64,000 bases of DNA from Acanthaster planci (Eukaryota), in contig NW_019091360.1 of the NCBI RefSeq assembly GCF_001949145.1, positions 2,974,864 to 3,038,863 of the forward strand. The letters run 5' to 3'. Below, piece by piece: positions 1-38,123 of the stretch. A program made the translations under genes and the position numbers. Positions within the stretch are counted from its first letter, which is position 1. The number at the start of each line of letters is the position of its first letter. A model generated the notes under the pieces. That model was given only the letters and a program-made list of their open reading frames with translations, was not told where the DNA came from and did no database searches.

Positions 1-2270
1 AGCAGTAAATATGCAATTTTGATTAACAGTAGAGAGAGAGTTTTCCCTTGACCCACTGGGCACATGGAACGACAGTAATTCGTTCTAAGACGCTACTTGC
101 ATCCAGCACGATGGAGAATCATGAACCAGTGAAGATTGAAGAGACTCATAAATTCCTGAAGACATTATTCATAACATTAGGGCGTTTGGGTTATATACAA
201 CTACACTAGACGATGAGTCACGAAACAAATCCACTTTACTATAGAATATTTAGTGTTCATCAACTCATATAGTCCTAATTTGTAAAAGTAGATTGGAATT
301 AAATTTTACAACAGCTATTTTCATCAATACTGCCACACAGACAAACGTGGCAAAAGTGCACGACAAACAAAAAGACGTATGTAGGTTTGGAAAGGGTACC
401 TGTATGGCCTACCATACACTTAGCTGTTTCAAGGGAATTGTTGTTTATATCCAATTTTTTACTCCCAAAAACAAGAACAATGAGACTACCTACAATACTA
501 CCGGTAGACCTTTCATGAACAGCGCATTAACTGGACGGATGGATTTAAAATACTAAATTTGCATGTATTTTATTTGTATTGTTCAAATCGGGGAAAACCC
601 ATCGAACACTCAGTTCAATGATTTTAATATTAAATCGCTCGAAGTACTCTTAAAGGTTGGATTTTCAAGTCATGCTGTAAGCTCGATTCATGTTACGTTT
701 ATCGCTGATGGCATGGTATTTAGTCTACAAAGTTGTTAAATATGACAAAGCTGATTCATTACTCTTTTTTTACTGCCTTGGCATTTTTAACCGTATTAGC
801 GTATTAGTTAAATCTATGGTTCTCATATAAAGAGTCAGGCTATCGGTCTGCGAAAATAGGCGTTTGAAAAAAATTATTTGCTTCCCCCCTTAAATTCTTC
901 ATATTATAATTTTTCTTGACAGGGTTGGCGACATAGCAAACAAGTTTTTTTTCCTCAGCTGGAGTTAAAAATAAGGGTCGGTCAGACATGACTTTCAAAA
1001 CAAGTGGTTCTCGTAACATCATGGTATTATTTGCTCAATAAATGTACGTGATACTCAACTTCTTTTCATTCCTACATTTTATGGAGCATCCTAAACAACA
1101 GTTTAATTTTGAATTTGAAAGTGCAAGCAGTGAAAGATTTTATGTTTTTATTTACTTTTTATTATCAACAACCAGGACAACATGAACGTAGTCAGAATGG
1201 CATGTTGCAAATATGAATAATGACCACTCAAAGCTTCTAAAGACTGCATAAAATCATTCAGTTTTCACTGAGTGATCAGTCATTTAGCCTTTGTCGATGG
1301 CTATTCAGGATTATGCCTTACACACATGCTCTTGTGTACAATATAACAAATGTGGAAATAAATTTCTGTTGAATTAAGTTTGAAAGAAAATGGTTGAAGA
1401 CGATAAACTGTCGCTTCAGGCTAGGATCGAAATGTATTTATCATCCTCAAACTCGCTGCTCGTTTGATGGCTCGGGAACGGTTTTTTCTGTCACCGCATT
1501 AGATGTAATCGTAGTATGACACACCGATAAGGTCCTAAAGGCTTCCAAGAATAACCACCAATTCAACTTACCTATACGCCGCGGTGATCGACTAAGCTCA
1601 CGAATGTATCAACAGCACCTCATACGAGTGGCTTAAGTGCTACCAACAGTACATCCAGTGGGGTGATGTGCTCACAGCATGGCGGTGCACCCTGACGCTT
1701 GGAACTGGTAGAATATTGCTGAAGAAAAAAAAAATCCAACCCAGCTGCGAACATGCGGTAGCAGCACAGACGAGGTTGAAGGAGAGCATCCGTGTACAAT
1801 GCACGCTTGCTTGCATTCATCACCCAGCAGGTACAGGCTCAACATTTACGCTTGAAAAATTAATGACGTTTCAACCGGGGACGATGTCTGCGCTTCAGGG
1901 GGGACAAGGGAATGCCCACAGTTTGGAGGCGAGCGACGCTCGGCATGGATTCTCAGCCTACTTCAAGTGGGGAATCCTGACTCGTGGAGTGCGGTTTTCG
2001 CTCTGTTCACTGCGAAACAACGCGACCGAGGATGCCTGACACAGTGAAGGCAACCAGGCTAGGTATGTTTTTAACACGACGGCACGTGAGCAGCGTTCCA
2101 CTGAGAATAGTCTACTCATACGCCGGGGTGTTCGGGTTTCAAAACGGCCTTGCTTGAACTTGCCCGAATTTGGCGGTTCAAAGACGGTAAGGTAGATCGA
2201 AAACAAAGCACCTGACGTCAAGCCAATTTAAATGTTCACTACCATTGAGTCGGAGTATGGCCTCGCTAAT

Positions 2271-2343
2271 CCGCTTGAGAAGCACCCCCTCATCGGTTGA
2301 AAAGAGCCATGTTGGTCGGGAGTGCTCATTTTGTCATTAGCGA
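2271..2343 (+). repeat. Dispersed repeat family 2, partial copy
   Basis: CCGCTTGAG.AGAAGCACCCCCTCATCGGTTGAAAAGAGCCATGTTGGTCGGGAGTGCTCATTTTG core, shared with five other loci. Confidence 0.7.
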
Positions 2344-3235
2344 TTTGACCCAGACAATTATACCCTCAAAATCATTGCTTGCCCATTGATTTCGGCTTGT
2401 CAATTGGAGGCATTTTCTTCTTGTTTGAAACCGAGATTAGTATAGTATTCCTTTCACAACCAAACAATAATTGGTTGGCCTGCACGATTATGAAACCAAT
2501 CTTTGATAATCATCCTTCTAATTTCCAGCATCATGATTCAAGGCATGCTCACACGAAGCTCCAGTCCACAGCAAGAGTCAAGTGCCGTGGACTGCATGTC
2601 TCGCCCCGAGTAGGCGATATCAACGAACCCCCCCCCCACACCAACCTCTCCCAAACGCGCCAAAGTGGCGGCCTAATAACGTCTAGCAAGAAAACATTAT
2701 GACAGATCTTTGTCAGTACGAGGACGATTTGTACTGAGTCATATCTCTCTTTGGCCAAGATATGTCGGCAGATTTGTCGCGAATCGTGACGTGTGCTTGA
2801 CTGGAGGGGGGCCTAATTGATGGAAAGGAAGCAAAGTAGAATACCTACCGCGCAGTTTTTACTGTGCACTAGCAAACATTAATTGTTATGACCCAGATCT
2901 CTACTTCGAAATTCCTCAAGATATCAAGAAATATCAACTAACTCCAACCTGAAATTTTAACTATCAAGGTCCTTCTACATTAATATAAATATTAAAAAAA
3001 CATGCGACTGTTGGATCACCTAAATACTGTTTAAAAGGCTGGATCTGCACGATTCAATATATAAAATGGAGAAGTGCTAGCCTACGGCGGCAACTTCAAT
3101 CGGCAATTTGTCAACTTCAATCAGTTGTGTCAAGTGCAACTCAACACAATTTCTTAGCATATGAAAGTTAATGTCTGCATGTCATGTAACATGTGCTTCA
3201 CATCGACTTCAGTTCAGAATCCCAGGCTTTCTAAT

Positions 3236-3406
3236 CAGATGAATTTGCAAAGTGCACCTCCAAGAGTTTGCAACACGTTGGCCAATCACAATGTGTGAAA
3301 TCTGTCGACCCAATGCACATTTGGAAAGGGTCGACAGATTCCGTGTGTTGTGATTGGCCAACTCGTCGCAAACTCTTGCAGGCGCACTATAGTGAATCGC
3401 CTGTAT
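3236..3406. mobile_element. Palindromic ~170 bp MITE family 1, copy 1
   Basis: Inverted arms (GTGCGCCTCCAAGAGTTTGCAACGCGTTGGCCAATCACAAT...CTGTCGACCC) around a short TTTGGAAA spacer; four copies in the window. Confidence 0.75.
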
Positions 3407-4186
3407 GAGTGTCTGTCAACTAGGCAGCCTCAATAACAGGGAAGCCTCAATAACTGGGTAGCCTCAATAACTGGGTAGCCTAATTACATTGCTTCAACAT
3501 CCTCATTAAATGTAAATTAAAATTTACATTCTACATGCTACCATGATCAGTACACTTGGATTTAACCAGCATACTTGGATCACTGATGCACCAAGGAAGG
3601 AATGGTATACTCTGATATTTTGTAAAGCGTGCCCTTTTCTCCATAAGTGTGATCTTTACCAGTAGTACTTTGTGAAAAGTGCCCCTTCCCAAAAGGTGCC
3701 CTTTTTCGTCCGAATATTTTGCAACTCGATCGCACGTGAATTCTTTTCTACAAGTGCCCTTTCCCCGTAAAGCGCCCCTTTTCAAGGGTACACTTTTACA
3801 TGGAGCCCTTTACTAACATCACAAAAAACATCAAAAATCAGGTTGACATGTGGGGAGCACTGCCTGTGTAGTCCACTACCTATGTGCTTTGAACAGCGCC
3901 ACCATTAATGGATGGTGTTGAACCCCTCTCCCTGTTGATATTTTGAGGGTTGAATGGCTAGTGACCCAAAAAAAAGCCTTGCCCAGTGCCCCCATGCAAT
4001 GGCCTTGTTATGCCTTTGCACAGTTGCAAAGTTTTGGATTGCACACACTCTAAGTCAGTGCCAAGATGCTTTTGATGTAACAAGACATTTACTTTATAGT
4101 GAATGTCATTGGGAGATGGAATGTCCTGCAGTACCCAGCAAGGGAAGTGATGGTGTTGGGTAAGGAGGTAATTCCAGCACTTAATC

Positions 4187-4362
4187 CTCCTTGAGTAGAA
4201 GTACCCCCTCATCAGTTTGAAAAGAGCGTTGTTGGTCGGGAGCGTTCATTTTGTTGGTAGCGACGCGCATGCAAGTCGTTCGTGAACCAGCAAAGTTCAG
4301 TTCTGACCAAAGGAGCCTAAGTAAATAGCGCCCTCAAGCTCTTGGTCCAGCTTGAGGCCCGT
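4187..4362 (+). repeat. Dispersed repeat family 2
   Basis: Same core plus the 3' part ...GAACCAGC..AGTTCAGTTC.GACCAAA...AGCGCCCTC..TTGGTCCAGCT. Confidence 0.7.
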
Positions 4363-4471
4363 AAGGCAGTTCAGTGATTTCTAACCCGATTACAGTTGAT
4401 GGAAGACAAATCCTGGTGCTGATCCAAGTAGGACTGGACAGATTTTCCAAGAAAAAAAAAATTCAACTTAC

Positions 4472-6093
4472 CTTTACCATGAGGCAGGCTGTTCTGGGAT
4501 TTGATTGCACTATGACAGTCTCTGGTGCCATCTAGTTCAGTAGCTGTCTCCTGAAGGCTGGAGAGGGGGGTGAATATCAACATGTTTAAGTTGGCATAAC
4601 ACCAATAGTTAAGTTACAATGAATCAGTTCAGATGATTGTGAACAAGGTATACATTTTCTATTTTCCTCTTTTCCATACCTTTGGCAACAGACTAAAGGA
4701 AGCATGACACTGAAAACAGTACAGCCTAATTGTAGCACTGACAGAAAGAATTAGATATTTATAACCCACCGTTGAAGGGCATCAGGAAGAGAACTGTCTT
4801 AGATTAACCGCCCTTCCATGCTAAGTGTTTTAAAATTAATAGTGCAACCCAGACTTAATTATTAAGGCTCTATGTAAAAAAGCTGTTTTACTAGATTCCC
4901 TCCATATTGTAAAACTGATTGTTTCCCTAGATTTTCTATTCCTGTCCACCTGTGGGGGGGGGGGCTAGGGTACAAAGTACAATCTTTCTTTCCTACAAGA
5001 ATGGGGAGGAGGGCGGAAGAGGGGCCAAAGGCCACATACACCTAAAAAAGAGACTGAAAAAATATTTTAGGAAAAATGATAAGATCATGGCAATTTGGGA
5101 GATCAGGAACATGCCTTCCCCCAAGAAAAAAAGTTTAGAAGTCTGATAAAATTGTTCGGAGAAATAATGAGAGCATTGCAAGTTTTGGGTCTTATCATTT
5201 TCCCCTTCCAGAATCAAAGCCCAAACATGGAGCCTCACCCCACAGAATGGCCATATTAAAAAGGTTACGTGACAAAATTCCAAATATAAAAAAGATTTTG
5301 GCATCCCAACAAACTCATATTTTTCTATAGAAATGCAGGTGGTGCAGCTCCTAACATGGTGCACTTTTGAGGCAATTCACCTCTTGTGCCTTGCAGGAGT
5401 AAATTTTCTTCAAAAAATTTCACAATAAATTAATTTTATCAAAGTCCCCATATTCTGATTCAAAAATCTCAATTTTACTCACCCAATGAAAGTTTAATTT
5501 GGCTTTATTTTCCATTATTTTTTAAAGTACAAGATGAACTCTTGTTAATGTGCCCAAAATACCAAAATAATTTTCTAACAAACTTGTAGTTAGGTATGTA
5601 AACAGAGGTGATAACAAGTTCTTACATGTTTAGGCCTATATGGCAGTTTCTGACATCTTTTGAAGTGACCCTAAATTCTTTCCCGATTTCCAGACACCAA
5701 CCGTGTTTGAATTTCTGATCAAATTTCATGACACTGACATTGTTCACAAAGGTTCAACAGCATCATCGCAAGTTTCACCACAAATTTATCAGACCTTACC
5801 TGTTCGAGACATTCGAAGCACCACGAGGCCTCCGAGGCACTGTGTAGTCTATGATGGCAAATAACTTTCTGTGTAGCCTACTACTGAGTACTAGTTACCA
5901 CTAGGGCCTACCACTGTACCAGCCAGTCACGCCAATAGGCCTACCAACAACTCACAAATATCTTTGTCATTTTCCGCTGAAATCGCGTGTCTTTGAGTAT
6001 TTGGTGACTTGAGGTTAGGTCTGTCCAGCTTAAGGACTCACATTTTGGTGGATAACGCCCAGCCTCACTGAATTTCCGTGGAACTGCCGCCAT
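4472..6093 (-). CDS. 5' exons of an unidentified spliced gene
   Basis: Exons 6042-6093 (donor gtgagt), 5800-5848 (gtaagg) and 4472-4557 (gtaagt) join in frame as MAAVPRKFSEAGRYPPKYYTVPRRPRGASNVSNSLQETATELDGTRDCHSAIKSQNSLPHGK. No homology recognised. A further exon-like segment lies at 1572-1718. Confidence 0.35.
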
Positions 6094-6240
6094 TTCTGAC
6101 TACGCACGGGAGCTCTGCGCCGCAGACGTTCAGCCGCCATTTTGCCAAATCCCAGCAACAAGCCGCTGAAGACAGCGCACGCGCAGTCCCAGACGTTCGA
6201 AAACTAGTACACCACCTCCTTCGGTTTCGATTAAGATGCA
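6080..6240 (-). promoter_or_regulatory. CpG-rich promoter-like segment with two YY1-type AAAATGGCGGC motifs
   Basis: GCCGCCATTTT occurs at about 6086-6096 and 6133-6143 inside a locally GC/CpG-rich patch, next to a first-exon donor site. Confidence 0.45.
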
Positions 6241-7725
6241 GTTTTCGGATCTACCGGAAGGTTTCCAATTTGAAATGGAACTATCCAAGACAGCCTCTTC
6301 TCCACTTGAATGAAAGGGGACTCTCCACTGAGATTAACAAGAGATTTGTCCAAATTAAGTTTAGCTGTGACATCGTTTAAGTTGTAGATGCGTGTTAACT
6401 AAATAACAGGGGAAACTAGAATGCACGCTATATTTTTTTTATCATTTCACGATATTAAGTGGGGAAATCCACGAAGAACAGACATGGGAGGGGGGCGTAC
6501 AGTTACGCCCACGCCCTAATGGAACAAAAATCTGAATTTCCACACCGCGTCGTTTAGGCCTAAATACACCCAAGTGGTAACGCAATAAAACGTTTTGGTT
6601 CTTAGGTACACGAATAATGAAAGCCAAAAGAGAGAACAAAACCGACGGATAGATCTAAACGTGAAGTGCGTCGAATGAACGCAACAGAATGTTTTATTAA
6701 CAAAATACTTGCTGCACGCCTGGGATCATTTGGGGGAAAGGGGAAAAACAAAGAACATACTAAATCCACATTTACTTTAGAATAACAGTGAAGAAGTTTG
6801 AAATTATGAAAAACATTACTTGCTGCCAACACTACTTTACAACACGGTGCAAAATCATGGAAAACTATAATCATTAACTGGAAATTTCAGAGGTATTTTT
6901 TCTACAAAGTGAAACAAAATAGTGGAAAATGAAACACTGCTATGGCAGGAGGAAACTCCTACTCAGGAAAACATAATGTGACTTGAATATACAATATTAA
7001 ACTCTGTGTACGGAAACTGGTGGGTACGTTAAGGTAATGAATGAGTCCCCAGCTCCATAATAATCAGCAAAGAACTCTTTTCTGTACTTAAAAACAAAAC
7101 ACATTTTGGCGTTTTAACATTTTACGACTACCTTTTCTAAAAGGTGAACTTAAATACTCATCCTTCTCTTTTGTCATTGATTACGTTTAATTATTATGAT
7201 GAATTAAATGGAATGGTACTCTGACACCTGATTACTGGATTAAAGTTAAATCAATCAAAAGCAATGAAATTTGTACTAGTCGACGAGCACCGGAAAAATT
7301 TATTGCCCAAAAGGGGGCGCTATTCACGCAAGGTTGATTGGTTTAGTTGACCTTGAGTAAAAAGGGGTGGGGACTTATCACAGGAAACAAGTTATATACA
7401 CAATGACTTTTCTGCTGCCTTTTTAGCACTTGATGTGTTAATATTCAATAACTGTAGAAGTACATTTGGAAATAATTTTTTCATGTATTAGTACAGAACT
7501 CGATCCTTCCGTTCTCAGTGGCGTTTACACAGAGGGGCAAATTCTCTCTCTTGCGGACATAAGGCTATTTTTAAAAGAAGTGAATGCTCAATTTCTTTAA
7601 AAATGGCCGAGCATCTTCCTTTGGATGAGGAAGGCTTCTTACCGTGAAAACAATTCAATCAGTTCCGAAACAAATCCAATCCGTGCCCCAGATTAAAAAC
7701 CCTGTTGGCTACTGACTACAACCTC

Positions 7726-7731
7726 TTTATT
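7726..7731 (-). promoter_or_regulatory. Candidate polyadenylation signal of copy C
   Basis: AATAAA on the minus strand about 230 nt downstream of the copy C stop codon. Confidence 0.4.
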
Positions 7732-7959
7732 TAGGTAACAGTTTTTTACTTACTGAGTTTATCAAGAGTATATTTGTGATCTAATATTATCCTGTGTACT
7801 ATAATTGTTCTCCTATAGGCAAGAGTTACTAAAGCTAAAAATTACTAAATATTGGAAAGTTTATCATAACAGCCTGATCCTTCGACTATTCATTCTGAAG
7901 ATTTTGAAATTTCGATTTACAAAAATGGTACAACCTCTGCAATCACTTTCATTGGCTAA

Positions 7960-10900
7960 TCAGTCCCCCTTGTCTTTCGGTTCAATGACGTTCTTCTCTG
8001 GGTTGTACTTGACCGACATCCTACAGGGGAGGGAGCTCACGTAAGCTCTAATGATGAAAAATAAGTAAATAAACGAGTGAAAGTTTCAAAAAGTCACAGC
8101 ATACTGAAGCTAGCAAAGGGTGCTAATGTTCCAAGCTTTACACTCATCTTACATACTTCATCTATGAACTGAAGTATAGGTCTTCTTATATCTACTTCCA
8201 TTAATGGCTTGGCAAGATGTGATGTATTCACAGTTACAAGCGATAATTACTTCTAATACAAGTCACAATTTTGGGGAACTTGAGACTTGACTCAGACAAA
8301 AATGACTTGTATAATTTGACTTAAGTTTGACGTGGAAGAAATTGACTTAGTACTTGACCAAATTCGATTTGTTGATATTACCTGAAAGTTTGTCGAAATA
8401 AAATACAAGAAACAAGATACAAAAAAGCAATTCTGTCTGACCTCGTAATACTGATGTCTTATTACAAATATCAGCATATAATGATGAAAAAATAGACAGA
8501 AAAACAAGGCACTTCATCAAAGAATGTCAGAAAGTGCACAAGTACCATTTCAATTGTGACCTCAGACAGGCCTTTAAAAATGACTTTAGAACTTGATTTG
8601 GTAAAGGTGACTTGTGAATTGACTTCGGAAGAACTGACTTTCGTCTTGACTTGGGAGAAATCGATTTCTGACTTAAAGAAAAATGACTCTGTTGCAACGC
8701 AGTAAGCCACAGCCTTATAGGTCATGGTGAATGCTTGACTGTTTTTTTTTCAAATTCCGTGGACGATACATCCACAGTGAACGATGGCATTAAGCATTGC
8801 TTAACCATTAGAAAACTGATTTTCTGTGACCAAATTCATTTCTTCTGCACCCCCGAAGAATGAAGACTTTTTTCTACTGTAGAATATTGACCTGGACTTA
8901 CCGTTAGAGGGCGCCAATGGTCTTTTACAGGAAGTGAGTACAACTGTCATTGAACTGTTTGTCACCAGTATTACGATATCGTATCCCACATTCAAGCTGC
9001 AATAGCATTGTCTACTGACCTAGCCATCTGTTCCGCTTCCTCGATGCTCTCTGAAACGTAGTACACGTCTTGGTACTTGTCCAGATCAATATCCGGCAAA
9101 GACGCTGCAGCCTCAATCTCAAGAGGGCGCTTGACCGCTTTATCCGTGAACACGTGCTGGAGTGGATGGTATAAGATTTCACGTCAGTGTCATTTTCATC
9201 AAGAATTCATATAATTAAAACGACTGCAATTATTCCCACGCCAAAATGACGTAATGAATAAAAGTTTTGGGCGCGTCGGTTGGTAGACCCCGATGGAAAA
9301 TATTTGGCTTCAAACTGCTTCCGCGAAAGGACTGTCACGGATTTGCAGCATGGACTGAATAGTTGAACCGTTGAATTCCAACCTGAATGGACCCTCAACA
9401 GATGGTGCTGTAGCCCGAAGTGGACTAACGGCAAACACTTGAGATTTGAAAATAGTGAATCCCCAACTACTGCAATCTGTCTGCAAGTATAATGGGGGGC
9501 GTTACCTCGAGTTCGTTGGAGCCCGAAAGAAGCAGAGCACCGTAAGCTTTGACCTCTGACCCCTCCCGGCACAAACCTGCCTCAACCGTGCTCATGTATA
9601 CCTGTTCAAGAAGGTGGTTATGTTATAGTTAACGCTTAGTCAGCAGCTTATCAGACGATTGCCCCATGCTAAGAATCCTCTTTGAGCAACCGTGACGTCA
9701 CATTTGGAGAGCCATGGAAGGGTTCTACAGGATGACTTGAGTGCTAGTTCATTTACAATTGGCGGTGAAGCTGAACTACATCAATATAAAGTGAACTGTT
9801 ACATACTATTTGTGACGGTGCTGTGGAGAAAGGAGCCCCAGTAGAAATGTTGCTTTTAAAAGAAATTACTGAACGTGTGACTTACTGATGCGATTTTATC
9901 CAGAATATGGTCTGGAGTACCCAGCGAGGCAAGACCAATGTCCTGGCGGAAGGAAGCAGACACAGGAAATTGAATAAGAAGCACCTTGATTTAATCTCCA
10001 TCGACGTGCTGCTGAAACAACATATGAACTTCACAATAGTCTGTGTTCGAATTCACAAACGAATAATTCGGTAATTAAATTTTTTTGTTTCTGTTATCCT
10101 TTGTTCGAACATGAACCGAATTAACCTTTCTCTTGTCCAATATTAAACCTCGACATCGTTAACTTCCATCCCTCGGAGTTCTTAGTGGTAACTGTAAACA
10201 GTCACGCTCAAACAAGAAGTCGCTCCTATTCTGCGTGCACGTTTGTTTTTACGAACCGCTCTTGTCTTGTTTGACGAATGGCAAATGGCACGGCTAAATT
10301 TAGAGAAAAAATTCTGCACGGCTTCATAAAGCAAATACCATTGATTCCCGGTCAAGGTATAGAATAAACCCCATATGGCACGAATAGTAAACACCTGTAT
10401 GCGTCTTTTTTATTACACACGGAGTTAACAAACAAAGCAGCAAACTGAATAAACAAAGAGGCTTTTTCAACCCAATTAGCATCAAATCTCCCTGAAAAAA
10501 GTCAGAGATACCGGTACCCACAGCGTATCGTGTCACGTGGGCTTCATTTCAATACTTCTCTCGCAACAATCGACCAATTGACAATGTCTCTGTGTAAAAA
10601 CCCATGAAAAAGTATTTACTGAAACCATGATCAAACATATACAATGACATCGAAGAAATATGACCAAATACCACAAATTAACCTGAAGTGGGCAATGTTG
10701 ATGATGATAATTTCTCTTTCCCGCTTTTAATTTCCACAATTCATGGCGATCTAAAGTATTAAAATGTCTGCAGAAAGCTCTGGTAGTTACGGGCAATGAA
10801 AGTTTTGGCATTCGCAATGATTATGTGCATATTGATATCGTTTTTCGAGACGTAACTTTAATGTGATTCTTCAGCCTGGAGTGAAAAATGAAGTGATCGA

Positions 10901-13900
10901 TTTTTCCCACGTCATAGCTATCCCTTGCAGTTCGGACTTGCCTGTGAAAACTGGGCGAACTCAGCGTCGCACAGAAGCACGGCGTGTCCGAGGATCTCAT
11001 GAATAACATCCCTACGAGGAAAAAAGAAGATCAAGGCGAAGTCCCTTCTGAATAACAAGGAGGACGACACCAAAATAGCAGCAAAACAGTCATTATCAGC
11101 CCCGAGCAGGACCAATAGAGGGCGCAATTTTTTTCTAAGAAACGCAGACTCCTCTGGTCGGAACTGTATATTTCGCTGTTTATGAAATGCTCGCGTTATG
11201 GTCGCATTGCTTCCAACAAAATGAACACTCCCGACCAACATGGCTCTTTTTAACTGATGAGGGGGTGCTTCTGCTCGAGGCGGAAAACGAGAAATAAACA
11301 TGCAGTTAAAATACATGTACACAACTACGACGGCGTCTAACAGCAACAACTTCAGGAGCACGGTAGCTCCTTTTCGCTATTATCATCAACAGAACATCAA
11401 CATCAACAACAACAACAACTCAGTTTCTTTGTAACCCAGTTGCCTTATTAAGGCTGAATCTCCCGGAAAGAAACGAATAATTCTGCTTCTAGTTACATGC
11501 ACTAACTATTCCTTATTTGTTGTAATGATGATAATTTGTAATGTACAAAAAATGAAAAAAACGTTGCTTCTCGAGAGGCTTGGTTGACCGAAAGTTTGCC
11601 TTTACACCCAAGTGTTTAAATAGTGGATTATTTGATCTGACTTAGCCCAAGTAGATCGACATACACGTTGTAAAATGCTGTGACCGCGATCGCGTCACTT
11701 GATATTTCCAGCTACAAGGGAATATTAGATTTTGTTATACTTACGGCTCATTTGTGAAGAAGGCCCCGTCACCATGACGCACATACTGTGAAGAGCAAAA
11801 CACGCGAAATGCGAGAGCAGCCAGGAAGTCACGCGGTGTCATGAAAGTAGAAACGGGGCGAAGTCGGAAACCAGTTTTTCCTGCCGATTTAAACAATCAG
11901 TGAAACTAATGAATGAATTTTATGTTGCTTTGAAAAAAAATTAAGTAAAAGCAACAAATAACTCGACTCATGGCAGAATTGCTTTAGTCTACTCAAACTA
12001 TATTTAGCTTAATTTAAACAACATGCAAAAGTTTGGAATTTCCAAATGGTAAAAATACAAACAAAAAAAAGAAACAAATTCCCAACTTTTTGAGCCGGCC
12101 AAATTAAGGCAAAGCGACTTTCCATTTTATTTTTCACAGTCACAAAGAGTTGCCGATGATTTTATCGAGAACCAGCCTTTTCGACCAGTTCTAACGAGCG
12201 CAAAAAAATGAGAAAATCAAAATGACAAATTCGAGTACAGATGTTTAAACATTTCTAAGTAATAAATGAATCTGCATAGTTACTTCTCAAGTAATTAGAC
12301 ACTTTCTCCAGGTCTGGAATTCGGTGGGCGGATATGTCGCACGCTTCCAAAAAGGGTGCCAACAAGTTGTTGAATTTAGTACAAGCGTGCATGGGGTAGA
12401 GAAGCATCAGTCTGTTGTACGTTCGGGCCCATGTCTCCAGTTGGCTCGCCGGGTAGATCATCGATGGAATGGGTGTGCCGCTGAAATGTACCCAAATCAA
12501 TGAATTTTGCATTTTAGATGCTACCATTCTCCAACTGATGTCATTTCACGGAATTCCAACTCAAATCTAGAGAGTGCCCTGCCCCGCATAAAAAGGTGCA
12601 TGCAAAAACTGTTCATTTTAAACCTAGAAGTTAACTGATGGTTCCTTCACAGGCTCTAAAGAAGAAAGTGTTAACTTGAGGATACTTTCTTACTTTTATA
12701 TCATTTGATTATGGCGATCCAGAGTTATGCCTCTGACCCGCTTAAAACGTCGAACTTCTGCCGTGTCCATAACGGTGCAAGGTTTTAATTAGACACGGCT
12801 GAGAGTCGACGTTTAAAGCACTTGCTAACTTTCTGACGGAAGTTTGACAGGTCTCGTGGCTATCAACAGCAGGAGAGCGGCACGGCTTCACACGCCACAT
12901 ATCTACCGTGTGTAATTTAATTTTGGCATTACCATATTCCAAACTGTAGTGGTATCATTTGAAAATGCGCGTGCACCTGCTGCAGTTGTTTTCGTTTCGG
13001 CATCAAATCCACTGTAACATTTTCCTCTTGGGTTTTCCAAAACCCGTTTTGGTGACTGACCCGCCCCACATGTCATGTTTCTGATGATGGATTCACAAAC
13101 CTTTTTAAACAAACTCCACAACAAAATGGTCAGTTTCATGCAACAGCACGATTATAATCTCCACTAGCGAGTCTTTATAGATCCCCAACCTATACCTTGG
13201 AGATATTGGAAATTATATGGGCCAAAGTGTTTATTCTAAATCGTGTGTAATGCGAAAGACAGGAATGTCCAAGGTTGCTCTTTGAATTATTTTTCTGAAT
13301 TGGTATTCAGCCTCATATTTATAGCCAACCTGCATTTTGGACTAAATCTCTGACAAAATCAGCGGAGGTTGTGAAATTTCTTTGAAAGGAGGAGCAGCGG
13401 ATGTATCAAACAAAATAATCAAACCTGCCCTTTTTATAATTATCACCTGCAATACATTTGATCACAGAAAAAAATCTTTCGTGTCTCGTTTCCTGGTGCA
13501 CCATGTTGGAAAAAACCGCATTACGTTCAACAGAAAATTGACGTTTGAAGCAACTGCCCAACTTTTGTCGCTTTTATGTCAATTGCAGCTAATAGAACTA
13601 CACACAGCAGAAGTCGATGTTTGGAGCGATCCTCGGTACAAACATAAGCCATCAAAACTTTACGGAAACACTGTATAAACTGTTTGCTCTGATGCCATGT
13701 ATTTCTCGGGGGCTTTTTTCTATCCGGAATCTGTGATTCTTAGGTCGTGCCCGAAACCGGCATTTCCTCAGATACGGCTTACTCACCGCGGTCCGATCAA
13801 AAAACAAAAACAAAAACAAAAGCTATACGCCAAGTTAAAGAAAACCATCAAATCTGCAGCGGCGGTAACAAGTCATTATTTGCAAGTCCAAGCCAAGTCA

Positions 13901-16813
13901 CGGGTCATTTTTTGCAAGTCCAAGTCAAGTTACAATTCATGAGCTGGTAATTGCAAGTCAAGTCACGAGTCACAAAAATAGCGTCTTGAGTCCAAGTCAA
14001 GTGACTCGAGTTACTCTGCAAATCAGGGCGACTTCATAATCATATGTCGTACCAAAAAAATCATTCCTTGAGACCGAATTTAGAGCAGATGCATCGTGTG
14101 CAAAAGGCTGTGTAGCTCAAATATATTATGTTGCAACTGCATCTCAGCCCAACCTTACATTACCTGACTCCACTTATCCAAACCAATTACAAATAAACCT
14201 GTACCAACACAATCCTGTTGTATTCGAAACAAGGAGGGACAGAGAGGCCTATAAAAATGACGTTCAAGAACTGAGCATTTGGTTCTCGTTTTGTAACCGC
14301 AATATGTCCACTGTTTGCTAATGAGAGCTAAAGGGAATGCGAAACCCCGGTGCATTTCATATTTACACAAACAATGCAGATTACCTTACAATAAAATCAA
14401 TTGTCAATGTTTAATCATCAAATGAAGACAAAAGGTAGAAGGTTATTTCAATAATGTTTGTATATGTTGCCTTGAAATGGTATAATATTAATATTGATCG
14501 CTGTGCTTGTTCACGTACAAGGGTCCCAGATGGTACTGAATTAAAAATATGCAGAAAGAAGATTACATTTTTTATGTACTCGCGGAAGGAGATGCTTCAT
14601 ACATACATTCAAGTTCTTTCAGGCGTAGGAGTCGATGGCAGTCGATATAAGTATCCAAAAAAAGGAAATCTCTACTTCATAAATATTAATATTTACTGTA
14701 ATTTTATGGTTACGTCTTCACTTCCTAATGTGCTTTATTATCGAAGACAATGACGTATGGCGTGGCCTTTAAAATCAGTCGAGTCTGCCATCAGTTTAGA
14801 ATTTTGTTTTCAGCCTAATGTCAGAGCATAGGGAATGCACATAAGAATGCCAGAATGAGCAATGCAAAATTGACGTTCCTTGGGAGGCTGTGAAGAAAGG
14901 TTTTTCTATAAATTGGGGGTCCAAAAGTGTGACATTTTTGTGTTCCGTTACACCGGACCTGTGTAATTTGACATGACCATATCAGTGAAATTGATTTCAA
15001 ACTATGTCAAGTTGTTTGGCAGGAAATTTGCATTAATTCGTCACTCTTGAAAATCAGATAATTTGTTCTGAACTTATTTAAATCAAATATCAGATGTGAC
15101 AGGGACACGAAAAAAATCAGACCCCTAATTTATAGAATGACCCATAACCGTGTGCTCATAAAAACAGGACAGAGCAGTTCGCGCATTTTATTGACTTCGA
15201 AAATCACGCAGTAATCCGCTTCATGCTCCGCCTATAAATGTCGCAGATGCAAACCTCAGCCAGAACAAAATGAACTCACAGCTTGTAGGTTTTCGTCACG
15301 AGTTGGCATTTCCGTCGGAAGCTTCGATATTTGGCGTCGTCAAAGCCCTGGAGAGAAAAAAAACCAGAGAAGATTCTCTGATAACAAAATAGTGCATGAC
15401 GAATTTGTAAGAGTCAACTTCAACCGGTAAAACTTAGACATGCCGAAAAGAAATCAAATTAAATTATTGATGAGTACTTTTACAGAGCGACATATCTTGC
15501 TTTGTTTTAAAGTTCTTTTTGCGTTGCAGTTCGGTACGCCAAAATGACAGACTATATCATTAAAAAATCATTAAAAAATTAATGTATTGTTACAACTCCC
15601 AAAACATCCAAAGTGCGCAACGACAGCGTGCGTTACACATCGACATTCGGAGCAACATGGTAAATACCCAGGCAAAAGTGTTCATGAAAACCTAACTGAA
15701 TTAGAAATGGCAGATATTTAAGCGGTCGTATCTGTTCCCTTTATTCGAATAATGAGACGGAGATTTTCTACGCACTGTACTACAGCCTTGAAACCCTGAG
15801 CGTGTTTTATTGAATATAAAGGGAACAAATGAAATATTGAGAGCACAGACCTTTGAACCGACAAATGTAACCACGTACATAGGTAAGATCATGTTGGTTT
15901 CTTTTGTGCATTAACAGTGTGATGATCGAGAGTGTTAATGAGTTAATTGTATACATTATTAACCGTGCATGACTGGAAGATGTCACAGAAATGGTGGTAG
16001 GTACAAAGTTCAGCGAATGTAGGCGAATAGTATGAAAACACTTGTATGCTTTGGAGGCAATGAGCTACAGGTCCTAATTCAAACATATTTTATCACTACC
16101 ATTTACGATTGACAGGCCAAAAATTAAAGTCGAACTGTCAAACAAGGTTCTTTACACACCTTCACATTGGGCTGGATGACGTCGTACACTTCCCTGGTCA
16201 AGGAGTAGTCTAGCTCGGCAAAGTTTCTTGGAAATTCTTTCGAAACGAACCGGAGGAAAAATATCATAAGCTGAATGAAAATACGCACGGTAACGCGCTT
16301 TTTTTCTGTCTGTAGGTTTTTATTGGGTTTCCGGGTTTGGGGGCTATTTTCTCATTCTCCCTCTGAATTACTTGAGTTTTTTTCAAAGCTACAAATCTAC
16401 CAGTACAGGGTACAGATCAAAAGGAAAACTCCTGAAAACCTGTTATCAAGTTTTCAATCAGCCAACGTGTGGTCAGGAGAACAGTCGGTGTGGTCGGTGC
16501 AAAGATCGGTTAGTCCAAACGATATGGTTCTTTGCCCTGGTTGGGAATTACAGGGTTACCTAAAGCAGCAGATCGTCCTCAAATCATCAGATTTAAATTT
16601 GGTAACCCAAAACAAAGATACCTGACAATGATTGTCGAGAAAAAAAATGCAACTTTGGGGTCGCATTTTGGGGGACTCGCCATGTAGGAAAAAATGTGGC
16701 AAATCTTGGAAAGCCTTGGCTTCTTTACGGACAGTAGAGTACCTACCAACTTCGTCAGAACCATCGGCAACTGGGTGGGTAACACAGCAGCTGTCGTCTG
16801 GAAACTCGGACAT
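7960..16813 (-). CDS. Divergent aromatic amino acid hydroxylase, catalytic domain only (copy C), 10 coding exons, about 330 aa
   Basis: Exons in transcript order: 16747-16813 (MSEFPDDSCCVTHPVADGSDEV; least certain), 16160-16236 (EFPRNFAELDYSLTREVYDVIQPNVK), 15280-15347 (GFDDAKYRSFRRKCQLVTKTYKL), 12284-12480 (GTPIPSMIYP...HAC...IPDLEKVSNYLR), 11745-11880 ([45 protein letters not shown]), 10942-11011 (DVIHEILGHAVLLCDAEFAQFSQ), 9886-9942 ([19 protein letters not shown]), 9506-9601 (VYMSTVEAGLCREGSEVKAYGALLLSGSNELE), 9020-9156 (HVFTDKAVKRPLEIE...KYQDVYYVSESIEEAEQMAR), 7960-8047 (AYVSSLPCRMSVKYNPEKNVIEPKDKGD*). Exon sizes 68/197/136/70/57/96 match PAH exons 5-10 and the same exons in copies A and B. 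Total 993 nt in one open frame. Confidence 0.88.
11100..11284 (-). repeat. Dispersed repeat family 2 (reverse orientation, intron of copy C)
   Basis: Reverse complement of the family 2 core. Confidence 0.7.
13857..14015. repeat. CAAGTC-motif repeat, probably a DNA transposon end; related patch near 8230-8400
   Basis: Multiple CAAGTC/CAAGTCCAAGTC motifs. Confidence 0.45.
14899..15144. mobile_element. MITE with TTCTATAAATT.GGGGTC inverted ends (intron of copy C); related partial copy near 41442-41620
   Basis: GGTTTTTCTATAAATTGGGGGTC...GACCCCTAATTTATAGAATGACCC. The internal sequence recurs in intron 11 of copy B. Confidence 0.6.
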
Positions 16814-16930
16814 CTCGATACTTCTATGCAGTGTCAAAACACAGATCAAACGGAAGAGCAGGAAAGAATTATCAATATGAACATTAGTTATTAACATCAA
16901 TTATCAGTTGGAATCCTGTGTAGATCTCAC

Positions 16931-17196
16931 CTATCTTAATACCTCTCAGATGATGGTGCGCACCGTTGGTCGACACGAAGACACTTCTTCGCTATGACCA
17001 CGTCAGCGACTGCGGTCCTTGCTGTCCGTGCTCGAGATGACTAACTTTTGGCCGTGTGCGCCGTTTCGACTTCGGTCCAAAGAAACCCCGCGACGATCGA
17101 GCGTTCCACCGCAGCAGGCAGGTCGGGTAAATAGCAGAAGCTGTCGGCAGCAGCTGACTCTGGAACCAGCAAATGAACGCTGCCTTTGATAGGCCT
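16931..17196 (-). other. Probable non-coding 5' exon of copy C
   Basis: GC-richer segment bounded by a tag acceptor and an ATAG|GTGAGA donor, with stops in all three frames. It lies just upstream of the ATG-containing exon whose acceptor is at 16823. Confidence 0.4.
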
Positions 17197-18263
17197 ACAT
17201 GACAATATATATGGGACGAGCGGTGCACCCGTTAAAGATGGAATCACCTGGCTTATGCAACAAATGCACAGATAAAAGCAAAGCACACATGTGGAGATGC
17301 TGTTCAACTCAATCGGAATCAATTTACATAATGGTGTGTACAAAAAAGAAAGACACAGGAAGCAGTTAAATACGCCGACAGTGAAATCAATTGTGAGAGA
17401 TAGGCTATTTGTGTTGGTTGTGTACTTGACCGCTGCGTCCAGCCCCCCTCCATTACCAGTTGCGTAAAAAGTGACCGTTATCCTGCGTTTTATTTAATTA
17501 CCTCTAGTGGTCGAGCACCTGGATCATATTCTCTCAATACAGGGATCTCTCCACAGGAGGGGGCGTGTCTCGCCTCATCGTTTTCAGTACGGTGCTCACA
17601 AAAACCGGCGACATTACAACACTTCACAAACAGCTAGTATTGCCATGCATCAGAGTGATACTCAAACGGGCCTGACAGATTTCGAGTCTAGATTTTAGTG
17701 GAACCGTAGTGCTGAGGTCACTACGAGAGCGAACCAGCCCATTTGGGATTGAAAGACTGAGCAGTGCAGCGCCGCAGAATCGATTCGGAGTTCAGCTTTC
17801 CGTTCAATCTGTACGGCACATTTTATTTTCAACAACACGGCTTCCCACGTACCAGCCTTATGAAGTGTAAAACAATTATTAGCTTGTAAAAGCCAACGTG
17901 AACGGTCGAATGTTTGGCTACCTTTAATAAATATTGATCTAGACTTTGGGAAGCAAATTTGACTACGTCTATTTTCTAGTACAACAGCTGTTCCGTTTGG
18001 GCCCGTTGCGGGCTTGTAAAATTAGTCTTCTAATACCGCCCTTTACACTTTTATTCCTTTATTAAAACAAAAGATTTCAATTAAAAAAGCCCTCAGTTCG
18101 ATCCGCCTCGGACTTCCATCCCACGCTAAAAACCAAGGTGCTAAATCCAACACTTGTTGAGTTGTGGTCAGTAAAAAGTCTTTGAAAGTGTTAAATCCCA
18201 TCACGCTGTACATGCATATTAAATCCAATATTTTATATTTTAAATACAGTATTTAACTATTAA

Positions 18264-18432
18264 TACGGGTGATTCACAATAGTGCGCCTCTTAGAGTTTG
18301 CAACGTGTTGGCCAATCGAAACGCTCGAAATCTGTGGACCCTTCCCTAAACGTTCATTGGGTTGACAGATTTGGCACTGTGATGGGCGAACGCGTTGCAA
18401 ACTTCGAGGCGCAGTAGTGTGAAACGCTCGTA
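18264..18432. mobile_element. Palindromic MITE family 1, copy 2
   Basis: TA-CGGGTGATTCACAATAGTGCGCCTC...GAGGCGCAGTAGTGTGAAACGCTCG-TA, flanked by TA. Confidence 0.75.
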
Positions 18433-20282
18433 TTAAACGTTTTAAATGCTGATTCAACGATATTAGGGAAAACTATTGAAGTAACACTTAAAATGTTGAA
18501 CTGACTCTTCAACTGTTGGATCTGATATTTAGAGTGCTTGGTTTAACATTAAAAATTCTGGGTTCAGAACACTCAAAAGCGTGGGCGCTGACCACGTTTT
18601 ATGTAAGTGCTCGATCAACAAAACCGCCTCATTACAACTTTATCCCTCATAAAAATAGAAGACCTTCAATCATTAAATACATATGTAAGGGGATACTTTC
18701 TTCAAAGTTCCACCCCCAAATTTTCCTACTTTGTTTAGCGTATCAGTTCAATGACCAACATTAAAATGTCCCAAAGGTTAGTTTAAAAAGTAAAAGTTAA
18801 CCACGATAAGATATCGTTTTTAACCATAAAAAGTCCTATTTACAAAAAATGGTATCAAAGTTATAATGAAGACAAAAATCCGTTTAAACGATGTGGTATA
18901 TGTATACAGTACTTACAAGGATACTGATAGTGTAGCGTGCATCATGGATATGACCAATTTAAACACGCTTAAAATACAAATCTGAATCTAATACTACACG
19001 ACAAACGGAAAAACCAGGGTCGCATCGGATCAAATTATTGTCGAGATTTTGATAAAGTGCACTGAAAGTTTGATGCATGAAATTGTTATTAGGAACGATT
19101 ACCTGTACAGGACGTTAGAAAATCGGAGACTGCGGTCGTTTGGAATGACTCAGAAACGGTTCAGATTCAGACGTCTCGTGAGCTAAACTCGATACAAGAT
19201 TTGTTCATGTGTGCTAGTTAGGAAAATTGACTTTTAGAATCCCACAATCCGCCAGACGCCTTGCCGTTCTGGGATGCCTTGGCAAACGCGGATCGACACA
19301 TAGAAATTATGATGTGGATGATGTAAATATACGATTTTCATCTAATTCTGTGACAGAAACATTATGACCAACAAAACTATAGCTGGGTGGCAAAATGACG
19401 CTAGAGCCACTTATAGAAACATATGTTTACAGCCTATCGCCTCATCCTTATCTTCTCTTATCGATACTGTTGTATCGTTCTATCCAAAGTTTCCCAGTTG
19501 TGCTTATCGGCCCATGATTATTTTTGTGCACGTGTTTACCAAATACATGAATTGTCCCATAAATAATTAGGGTCTTATGCTTGCCGACCTGATTATGATC
19601 ATTTTATGTCTTTATCATCTAAAATAATTGTGAGGAATAACACAAGAAGCGAGCTGCGTGTGTATTTTGTACTTCTAGTGCTGCTCGCGGCTTGCATAGA
19701 TACTAATCTAAAACCCAAATCAATAGACGTAAAATATAATGACGTCACGTTTTGTTTACACGTGCGCTTTCCCACCTGACTGCCATAGAAAAGTGCACGT
19801 GTAAACAGAGCGTGACGTCATATTTGGATTGAGCAAATTCGTTCTTAATACTATTGGTTCGGTGCGATTTTGGAATGATAATTTGAACCAGAGGTAACTT
19901 CAAGATAATTAGTGTTTTTCCTTAAGAAAGACGGAAGAAAAGGTTTGAGTTTAACAGTGCTGGCATAATCTGGAAATCCCGTCTCCTACTAAATTACCAA
20001 CTTACGAAATGTGCTTGCAGATTTTTTTGGGTGTTTAGTGTATTTTAACAATTATCGTTTATATTATGACATTGCAACACTTCACAAACTAAGAGGGCCG
20101 GAATTTCGTTATCCTACGCAAATATCATTTAAACGTCTATGACAACTAGCCAGTAAATAATGTCATATAGTCAAATTAATCGATCCTTCAGGCAGTTCAA
20201 TAATTTTCCCATAAAGTCTGTCACTCATCTGAAACGTCCGGCAAGTTTCTTCGTGAAGAATTCCAGGCATAATCGGGTCTGT

Positions 20283-23200
20283 TCAAGACACTTTGTCGAC
20301 AGCACCGATCAGGATGTTCAAGTCACCTTAAGGAGAAAAGAAAAGAGCGACAGATATTTTGAAAAGAGAGAGTGAGATGAAGAGGGATGAAAACTATCAA
20401 TGAGCATAAACTCGAAATGAATCCCCTGTCATTGTTAGTGGTTCATCAGTTCGTTGCTGATGCATGGAAAGGAAAAACTTCTGCCGACGCCCAACATGAT
20501 AAACATGCCCGCGGGAACACATATTTCTTAGGGGGTGCTCAGCTTGTAAATAAAATTTCAAGTCCAAGACCACTCAGCACGTCATATAAGCTTGTGTTTC
20601 AACTAGGCTAAGGTTTTTATATCAAGCTGTGCCGTAATTTGAGAGCACCAAAATGCGACCATTACGTCGCGCGCCCTGGTCGCGCGCTGCTTGCACAGCG
20701 CGCCCAAGCCAAATACCTGTAGTCTGGATACCAGACCCGGTGATTCCAACTATTCTCGTCGAAGACTTTTTATCAATGCAGCCTTCTTTGGGCAGGGAAT
20801 AAGACTGCATAGCCAAACAAAAATTGGCTGCGTCCGAATCTGTTGTCTAGAGCTAGGTCTAGGACTTTGCTCCTTAGGAAATATAGCCTACATTGTTGAG
20901 ACACCAAGACATTAGACCTAGCCGTAGCTCTGGAAGCCCGTTTCGGACACGGCCTCTGAACGAACGGACTCCGACATGAATATGCAGATATTTGACTGGC
21001 GTTCTGTGCTCTTGAGAAGTGTATTGTTTAAGAAAAAGTTACACTGCTAATTGTAATCATAAAAATCTAGGGTTTTTGGTGGATATCTGACATTGGTGAG
21101 TCTAATTATGTTTGTGGCTTAACGTGGTCAAAGTTGGGGGTGCTATGTTGCATACCAGAACCCCCATCCAAAAACCTAGGGGTGCTTCAGCACCCGAAGG
21201 CCCCCTCCCCCGTTTCCGCGGGCTTGATGATAAAATAAGAGAAAGGAACTAAGGCTTTGTCCCACTGTTATGGCTAGGGCTATATAGGGGCACGACGTGC
21301 GGCTAATGGCCCGTGGCTGCATGCGGCCACTTCCCATGTGCTACTCGAGCAATTCGTCATTCGATTTAGACACGGCTTGACACTCTGATCCGGCTTATCA
21401 GCTTGTGCAGCCAGTTTATGGCTGCACAGATGCATGAACTGCATCATGACGGGGTCGGCCGATTCGCATCATAAAGGCATCAGTGGGCGGGGGGGGGGGG
21501 TAATTGGAAACCCTCCTTTGTGAATCTGGAGACAGACGGCCGATCACAATAACTGATGCCTGCCCTCGTGCTTTCCTCCAAACTGCTAGGCTTGGCAACC
21601 AAGCCTTGGCTGGAGTCCCTGAATCTGTCACTGAGAAGTTGGCCAACAAAATGGGTGCCCAGACATCATGAGCAACTCAAAAGAAGTAGAAGTTTGTACA
21701 AAACAAACAGGCAAGTACATACAGGGACACTGGTGGACGAGTTGAGAGATGGGGATTAATTGAGTGATAGAAAGTATAAGGAGGAGGTTCAGTGGTGCTA
21801 AGGCAATGAGTCAGTCCGGTCTGTTTCACTTTATTCCAACTGCTTGAGCATCGATCCGTAATACCAATGGTTTGAGGGGTAGGCCTAGTAGGGAGAGCTG
21901 AGGAAAGGTGAACTTGATGGAGAGTCGGATCTGAGACAAGGTAGACAAGGAGGACAGATTAATTATTTGATCGTCATAAAGGTAATGCAGGGTGGAGAAG
22001 CAAGACGGGCAACGTGATTTACCTCGGATAGACTGGGCCAGCTCCTTCAGCTGTGTCTTCTTCTCCAACACCTCCACAGACTGGGTGTAGGGATCGTAGC
22101 GGAGCAAGAAGGGCCGTGGTATGCTGGAGGTATACTGTCTGTCAGTGAAGATAAGTAGAGCAATTAACACTTTCCTATCGTGTTGCCATGGTGATGGGTT
22201 CAAATTAATCAAGTTCTCAATACAGTCTCTCAGAAGTCAATCACAAGTCAAACAGTCTCAATCACGTCAAAAGAAAATTTTTTTATATGGTGGTTTTGAA
22301 AAGTTATTATCACTGCCTAAAAGGCAATTGCACAAGTATTACAAAAACAAAATTAAAAAATCTCTAAAAGGAAATCCATGAAGTGACATGAACTTGAACA
22401 TGAACTATTAAAGACAAATTAACAAATTACCAAAATGTTTACCTGTACAAGAATCCACATCTCCTGAAGAGAGCCATCATGGCAATGAAATTAGCTTTTA
22501 TTAAAGGGCCTAATTAGTTCTGTTCTGAACAAATCGTGAAGAAGACAATTCTCTGTTAACTGGTGATCCTCTGTGACTTTATAATCATCTTCCGACTCAC
22601 TTGTGATCCCAGTATGTTACACAGTTTCACCCTTCTTTGGTATTTATGTCTTTTAATTTCCTTCTTTATTTCCTTTTATTCATCATCAAATAGTGAAATT
22701 GGCGTAACTTTTGCCTTCAGCTATTGTCATGTCTTTTATCTCTTATCCGTCCTTTGTTTTCGTCTAGTAGTTGCTCGCGTTGTTGTTCTTGTTAGGTCTT
22801 ATGTCTCAAAGGCTATTTTTTACAAGTCTTGGCTTATTCAACAGCGTCATGCTCTTTTCTTTTCTCATTTGTACATGGACTACTTTTTCTTTATCTCATC
22901 AAAAGTTCATTAAAATGTTCTTGTTTTTCACTTAGCATCTGAAAAACGTTTGTGTACATCCACTTTGCTAATTTCAATATACCGAGTTTATTTAATTATC
23001 AATGTATTTTCCTAAGTTTATCCATTTTCTTTAATTCCTATGTAACTCAATGATTGACGTATTTTCTGAACAAGGGTATGGAATAAAATGGCTTCTTGAA
23101 ATTGAAATTGATTCCAGTCTTTCGATGATATCATTGCTCATTGAAGCTTATTAAAAATTAATTCACCAATCTTGGCCTCAAATCGAGAGGCTTATTTTTT

Positions 23201-35986: not shown

Positions 35987-36246
35987 NNNNNNNNNNNNNN
36001 NNNNNNNNNNNNNNNNNNNNNNNNNNNNNNNNNNNNNNNNNNNNNNNNNNNNNNNNNNNNNNNNNNNNNNNNNNNNNNNNNNNNNNNNNNNNNNNNNNNN
36101 NNNNNNNNNNNNNNNNNNNNNNNNNNNNNNNNNNNNNNNNNNNNNNNNNNNNNNNNNNNNNNNNNNNNNNNNNNNNNNNNNNNNNNNNNNNNNNNNNNNN
36201 NNNNNNNNNNNNNNNNNNNNNNNNNNNNNNNNNNNNNNNNNNNNNN
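35987..36246. other. Assembly gap
   Basis: Run of N between copies A and B. Confidence 1.
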
Positions 36247-37984: not shown

Positions 37985-38123
37985 CCTGGACCAAGAGAGG
38001 GCGCAATTTCCAAGCAATGGACGCTCCTTCGGTAGTAACTGCGCATCGCTAGCAACAAAATGAGCGCTCCTGACCAATATGGCTTTTTTCAACCGATGAG
38101 GGGGTGCTCCTGCTCAGGGCGGA
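37985..38123 (-). repeat. Dispersed repeat family 2 (reverse orientation)
   Basis: Reverse complement of the family 2 core. Confidence 0.65.

Follow-up and report, generated by a model that had tools for sequence, protein, structure and literature searches.

A catalytic-domain-only member of the family of aromatic amino acid hydroxylases in sea stars, with a rebuilt substrate pocket and a candidate new activity

Genes and other features of the locus

The window, i.e., the whole stretch of 64,000 nucleotides of Acanthaster planci DNA that was analysed, carries two full-length PAH-like genes (copies A and B) and a shorter gene belonging to the family of aromatic amino acid hydroxylases (AAAH), which we will call the catalytic-only gene (Table 1). 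Its ten minus-strand exons, running from 16813 to 7960, splice into 993 nt encoding 330 aa plus a stop codon without any internal stop, just as an earlier note on this DNA had proposed. AG is found at all nine acceptors and GT at eight donors, the donor of intron 6 being GC. The spliced contigs of runs X1 and X2 confirm this GC-AG intron, and those of X5 break there; the read data place it one base off, inside the stated ambiguity, which is consistent with a GC donor. Eight of the nine introns share codon and phase with copy B, and the first agrees in phase and is displaced by at most two codons in a poorly aligned stretch, so that the claim of PAH intron positions holds as well. With exon 4 as the query, one protein among 26 candidates was retrieved, identical to the spliced model. 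The product is also identical to RefSeq XP_022104913.1/XP_022104923.1 ("phenylalanine-4-hydroxylase-like", Acanthaster planci). The gene is thus already annotated, though by an automatic name alone, and the earlier description of it as hidden has to be dropped.

Table 1. Coordinates of genes, transcript parts, and repeats in the window (residues in PAH numbering)
Feature	Position	Strand	Remarks
Second non-coding 5' exon	17501..17545	-	One contig; upper end estimated from contig size
Non-coding 5' exon	16931..17254	-	Alternative donors 16931 and 16943; both forms have stops in frame ahead of the ATG
Coding exon 1	16747..16813	-	ATG and 22-residue low-confidence N-terminal peptide where PAH has its ACT domain; transcribed exon starts at 16823
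Coding exon 2	16160..16236	-	Catalytic domain begins; Y138 loop diverged
Coding exon 3	15280..15347	-	Spliced model and transcripts
Coding exon 4	12284..12480	-	Spliced model and transcripts
Coding exon 5	11745..11880	-	Pterin-binding loop A246S, G247T, L248F, L249M; F254 kept; H264C, P279N; R270 (codon 11779-11777), T278, P281 kept
Coding exon 6	10942..11011	-	Iron ligands H285 (11001-10999) and H290 (10986-10984); E286; GC-AG intron next
Intron 6	9943..10941	-	GC-AG
Coding exon 7	9886..9942	-	Spliced model and transcripts
Coding exon 8	9506..9601	-	Y325, W326M (9595-9593), F327S, iron ligand E330 (9583-9581), F331A (9580-9578), G346L (9535-9533), S349 kept, S350G (9523-9521)
Coding exon 9	9020..9156	-	377-379 specificity loop, I-D-L
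Coding exon 10	7960..8047	-	Stop precedes the tetramerisation helix
3' UTR, about 1.25 kb	6702..7959	-	Transcripts; poly(A)-signal-like hexamer near 6698
Copy B (P0123, XP_022104506)	20283..33696	-	Full-length 13-exon PAH-like gene with ACT
Copy A (P0380, XP_022103100)	40475..59456	-	Full-length PAH-like gene, mapped without its first exon
Retrotransposon remnant	51093..52724	+	Copy A intron; aspartyl protease match below cut-off, integrase zinc-finger match
Retrotransposon remnant	62700..63851	-	Pao/BEL peptidase A17 match
Degenerate tandem repeat	41611..42328		Copy A intron; repetitive minus-strand open frames
Dispersed repeat family 1	3158..3433, 18257..18472, 32834..33138, 48432..48780		Self-matches in both orientations, MITE-like
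Dispersed repeat family 2	2181..2386, 4184..4333, 11119..11376, 28120..28702, 37847..38245		Several copies of this family and of family 1 attract many partly matching RNA reads
GC-richer patches	1575..2050, 4470..4560, 5800..6250		3' of the catalytic-only gene; minus-strand donor-like ends; no Pfam match in one frame tested; RNA depth near zero
Assembly gaps (N runs)	35987..36246, 46567..47018		One between copies A and B, one in a copy A intron

Domain architecture and expression

The only domain found by Pfam in the catalytic-only protein is Biopterin_H (PF00351; 326 bits against a cut-off of 22.7), which covers residues 24-324. No Pfam match to the ACT domain (PF01842) was obtained, whereas the neighbouring PAH-like genes do have one, and tblastn with two full-length PAHs detected no trace of ACT in the stretch from copy B to exon 1. 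An upstream ACT exon missed by the model can be rejected on this ground and because in-frame stops stand upstream of the ATG in both 5' transcript forms. At the other end, residue 330 is the last, some 24 residues earlier than in copy B, so that the tetramer helix is absent; the same is true in Asterias. The protein is thus indeed confined to the catalytic domain, as first described. Its predicted model (pLDDT 82) has a normal AAAH fold with PAH as the best structural matches, and superimposes on the PAH ternary complex 1mmk with a Z score of 40.5 and an rmsd of 2.1 A over 305 aligned residues. In the ESM Atlas, nothing was retrieved beyond PF00351 clusters.

The gene is real and expressed. 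Contigs of 2515 nt in X1 and 2573 nt in X2 span all nine coding junctions, and X5 contigs span eight of the nine; we presume these three runs to be RNA given that their contigs are free of introns. Among the junctions listed, raw RNA reads cover at least five in X13 (1-2 reads each), at least five in X16 (2-6), and at least two in X17 (1 each), whereas X10 and X14 have none. The mapping of RNA to the junctions that had been proposed therefore yields spliced transcripts, as contigs or reads, in at least six of the eight runs, from four studies (again among the junctions listed). Two coding differences are listed for the gene in RNA, both synonymous.

Orthologs and selection

Intact and equally truncated orthologs are present in Asterias amurensis (319 aa) and A. 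rubens (328 aa), both named "TPH1-like" by NCBI. They sit on records equal in length to those of each species' PAH, which suggests that the linkage to PAH is conserved in Asterias. Patiria and other further orthologs were not found among proteins of 115-2000 aa (exon 4 query), 181-578 aa, and 175-795 aa, although PAHs from Patiria, sea urchin, sea cucumber, and crinoid were recovered in one of these searches. The second-best match by score, P0124 (821 aa), was set aside as a two-domain TPH-type protein with F331/G346 that is not a close relative.

The catalytic-only proteins of Acanthaster and Asterias are 63% identical, as against 89-90% for PAH across the same split, so this clade evolves fast. 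Identity within the catalytic region amounts to 44% with copy A and 41% with copy B, as against 82% between the two copies; the protein has, as had been noticed before, diverged well beyond the distance between them. Against 34 reference rows, Acanthaster and A. amurensis have the same residue in 75 of the 86 family-invariant columns and in 117 of the 220 other columns. Of these invariant residues, 20 of 86 have been lost in Acanthaster and 28 in Asterias (pterin-loop A246 and G247 among them), and at 17 the two sea-star lineages share one and the same replacement. The intact orthologs and the concentration of conservation at family-invariant sites support the view, already put forward in the earlier note, that the gene is under selection.

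Phylogeny and origin

Trees were built from 51 rows and then from 29, once 10 divergent unnamed rows and another 12 that were long or redundant had been removed; where a row had no name, a TPH label was assigned by motif. The row A_Acanthaster represents P0271 and not copy A of the window, the two differing at 13 of 335 residues. The sea-star catalytic-only clade receives full support (100/100), and its stem measures 2.7-3.1 changes per site. In the 29-row tree, which like the other holds no echinoderm TH or TPH, it stands on the side of PAH, with unstarred support of 83/76, and is not part of TH plus TPH (99/96). Of four placements compared by AU tests, none is rejected, be it with asteroid PAH (p = 0.49), TH (0.33), TPH (0.37), or copy B (0.26), and the earlier assertion that the protein lies outside PAH, TH, and TPH is not upheld by them. 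The clade shares 3 of 16 asteroid-PAH, 11 of 33 copy-B, 5 of 19 TH, and 6 of 13 TPH diagnostic states. Its tandem position favours a PAH duplicate that predates the Acanthaster-Asterias split, an older fourth AAAH lineage being a possible alternative. Horizontal transfer of a bacterial Phe 3-hydroxylase (Phe3H) was rejected because the gene has nine introns of the PAH type and its product scores far higher against animal enzymes, so any likeness to Phe3H would be convergent.

Of the eight A. planci sequences included in the AAAH tree in the accessible part of PMC10244343, five are labelled PAH, two TH, and one TPH. A PAH-labelled one, which stands high in that paper's table of unstable sequences, may be the catalytic-only gene, which that part of the paper does not discuss. 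With a separate TPH and TH in the species and full-length PAH genes adjoining it, the catalytic-only gene is supernumerary.

Active site and substrate pocket

In PAH numbering, taken from sequence alignments, H186, H191, and E231 of the catalytic-only protein correspond to H285, H290, and E330, and this 2-His-1-Glu site is present in all three species. The Acanthaster protein also has E286, R270, Y325, and S349, so the ligands and anchors named in the earlier note are indeed kept in that species. In the clade as a whole, F254, R270, P281, Y325, and S349 are kept in three of three species, but E286 is replaced by Asp in both Asterias orthologs. What that note overlooked is the replacement of W326, F327, F331, G346, and S350. 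The side-chain pocket shows W326M/S, F327S, F331A, G346L, S350G, and Y377I, with position 326 varying (M or S) inside the clade, and P281 is the sole residue retained of the Phe pocket W326/F331/P281/G346/S350.

Phe recognition is assigned to H285, S349, R270, and T278 in the accessible part of PMC8003416, ring stacking to P281, W326, and F331, a water network to Y277, G346, S350, and E353, and pterin contacts to F254, L249, S251, and G247. Of the residues listed there, the catalytic-only protein keeps four of four for substrate recognition, one of three for stacking, one of four in the water network, and one of four for pterin, where at least some contacts run via the backbone. Judging from its sequence, the protein has likely retained the binding of an L-amino-acid backbone.

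A census of positions 331 and 346 covered 377 proteins (396 rows, 359 with both sites). F/G occurs in 323 of the 359, including the tabulated PAH, TH, and TPH references, and the A331/L346 pair in three, all in the sea-star clade. L346 (3/360 rows) and S327 (3/368) are likewise restricted to the clade. Outside it, a non-aromatic 331 is accompanied by a non-Gly 346 in seven of eight rows, compared with 16 of 348 otherwise, the rows being related and not independent.

We take Phe at 326 and Tyr at 248 to be TPH-type determinants, and Asp at 379 (TH D425) to be the TH-defining one. In the clade, position 248 is F and 326 is M/S, so this TPH-type combination is not present. Position 379 is Leu in all three proteins and Asp in human TH; as 377-379 reads I-D-L, the TH-type Asp is missing too.

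Comparison with known enzymes

Animal PAH (PAH/Henna) is resembled in fold (TM about 0.85), identity (41-47%), intron positions, iron triad, and the retained R270/T278/S349/F254, and the catalytic-only gene stands in tandem with PAH genes. Unlike animal PAH (PF00351 plus ACT PF01842), the protein has neither ACT domain nor tetramer helix, evolves much faster, and carries P279N/S, P292V, and an altered pterin loop in addition to the changes at 326, 327, 331, 346, and 350. TPH and TH share the fold, 39-43% identity, and some states (L294, H356, I421) with it; unlike TPH it has M/S instead of F at 326, unlike TH it has L instead of D at 379, and a regulatory domain is absent. It thus belongs to PF00351 but lacks the traits of domain and pocket that define PAH, TH, and TPH.

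With bacterial Phe3H, the common features are a single catalytic domain, a small residue in place of F331, and a larger one in place of G346. The exact residues of Phe3H are also absent from the catalytic-only protein: the pair is A/L as opposed to C/T (C/S in SfaA), as read off the published alignment, and 346 has no hydroxyl. Introns are present, and W326, F327, and S350, all retained by the bacterial Phe3Hs in the alignment of PMC7027792, have been lost. The loss of P279 and the presence of D286 were set aside as Phe3H-like signs, since both also occur in Chromobacterium Phe4H (PMC7027792). Scores are about 260 bits to animal AAAHs and 45-92 bits to the bacterial PhhA structures compared.

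What the protein may catalyse

The pocket is rebuilt and differs at the two positions that are also altered in the bacterial enzymes making meta-tyrosine, which makes a product other than tyrosine likely. We infer such a new activity from residues alone. Our tentative reading, which we consider plausible but still short of probable, is a BH4/O2/Fe(II) hydroxylase whose target would be a non-canonical position on the ring of an L-amino acid, likeliest the meta position of Phe or a close derivative. The Fe(IV)=O species would form as in all family members. F331A, W326M/S, and F327S would empty the pocket floor and G346L would add a bulky wall, so that the shifted ring would present C3 and not C4 to the iron, as with C187/T202 in bacterial Phe3H. 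Without ACT domain and tetramer helix, the enzyme would be a monomer or dimer free of phenylalanine allostery. The gene would have arisen by duplication within the PAH array, with the housekeeping role left to canonical PAH copies, and its product might feed specialised metabolism, e.g., meta-hydroxylated isoquinoline alkaloids.

In the Streptomyces Phe3H, C187 aligns with F331 and T202 with G346 (Fig S22 of PMC7027792), and together they set the regiochemistry. The C187A variant remains active and gives 100% meta product; T202S gives 80%, and T202A gives 67% and is >45-fold slower than T202S. Citing earlier work, the same paper states that T202G and T202G/C187F move the product toward para. 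Since it credits the hydroxyl of T202 rather than bulk alone, a leucine without hydroxyl counts against meta hydroxylation in the sea-star protein.

A further step, which we regard as doubtful, is that sea stars evolved a Phe meta-hydroxylase independently of Streptomyces, with m-tyrosine or 3,5-dihydroxyphenylalanine leading to isoquinoline alkaloids of the imbricatine type. Imbricatine is a starfish alkaloid with two meta-placed phenols, for which the review PMC9103826, in its accessible part, proposes a polyketide origin; alkaloids of its isoquinoline type are rare in marine animals according to the accessible part of PMC11050936. The compound comes from Dermasterias, and its link to the catalytic-only enzyme is one that we infer. 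In the literature, we found no report of imbricatine or enzymatic m-tyrosine in Acanthaster or Asterias. A search for the catalytic-only gene or an animal meta-hydroxylase likewise returned nothing relevant from a coverage in which subscription journals are mostly absent. To our knowledge, no animal enzyme is yet known to carry out such a meta hydroxylation.

The same pocket could also have been enlarged to admit a substrate instead of re-aiming phenylalanine, in which case the protein would be active as a pterin/iron hydroxylase but would take another and bulkier L-amino acid (Tyr, Phe, or Trp in substituted form, or one with a non-aromatic side chain). This is possible, though we would not call it the expected outcome. 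Small or aliphatic residues have replaced W326, F327, F331, and Y377, with R270, T278, and S349 retained, the bacterial meta enzymes retain W326 and F327, and the 17 invariant residues with the same replacement in both lineages would amount to a conserved new pocket. Given the loss of W326, F327, and S350 and the variable position 326, a larger substrate or a loose pocket fits as well. However, G346L means more bulk and less room, it is for regiochemistry that the joint change at 331 and 346 has been documented, and the analyses point to no candidate substrate.

It is unlikely that the protein is impaired or uncoupled (a pseudoenzyme, pterin oxidase, or iron/pterin-binding protein) and retained for another role. 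Such a fate would agree with the loss of 20 to 28 of the 86 invariant residues, the altered pterin loop, and the very long stem branch of 2.7 to 3.1 changes per site. It sits poorly with the retention of the three iron ligands, F254, R270, P281, Y325, and S349 in all three species, and D286 is also found in active bacterial enzymes.

Slightly less credible again is an ordinary, unregulated Phe 4-hydroxylase or Trp 5-hydroxylase comparable with bacterial single-domain PhhA or truncated mammalian constructs. PAH and then TPH are indeed the top structural and sequence matches, position 248 is aromatic, six of the 13 TPH-type states are present, and the Asterias orthologs go by the name "TPH1-like". 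The tabulated PAH, TH, and TPH references, however, belong to the 323 of 359 rows with F331/G346, and the genome already has full-length PAH neighbours and separate TPH and TH sequences.

A pseudogene or gene-model artefact, to which the shallow raw-read depth and the two of eight runs (X10 and X14) without a junction among those listed might point, is very improbable in view of junction support in six of eight runs from four studies, intact orthologs in two Asterias species, and RNA coding differences that, as listed, are both synonymous.

Significance

Animals have three recognised pterin-dependent amino acid hydroxylases. The catalytic-only protein of sea stars would be a conserved, expressed fourth AAAH type, which as one 330-aa domain is open to direct test by standard assay. 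Should it be a meta-hydroxylase, it would have converged with the bacterial enzymes at two residues, by a steric instead of a threonine-based path to meta selectivity, and would offer a candidate step for starfish alkaloids as well as a new biocatalyst. Should it act on another substrate, the chemistry of the AAAH family in animals would still be broadened.

Other family members with altered pockets

In seven further divergent proteins of the family (P0163, P0199, P0203, P0204, P0214, P0245, and P0258), positions 331 and 346 are both changed (V/A, V/S, T/A, L/R, N/A, M/A); these may be additional enzymes with altered regiochemistry.

The neighbours of the catalytic-only gene deserve a mention as well. 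In contrast to the PAHs of Asterias and Patiria, copy A (P0380) carries T278A and, at 326, the Phe of the TPH type; it may have shifted toward tryptophan. Copy B (P0123) is accelerated, with a branch of 0.23 compared with 0.04 for P0271, and shows V245S, T266S, and T328I; its 11 states in common with the catalytic-only gene are among 33 private ones. P0271 (XP_022102432) is itself a fully canonical PAH gene that lies outside the window on the same 4,409,325-nt scaffold, which thus carries four or more genes of the family, of which three have altered pockets.
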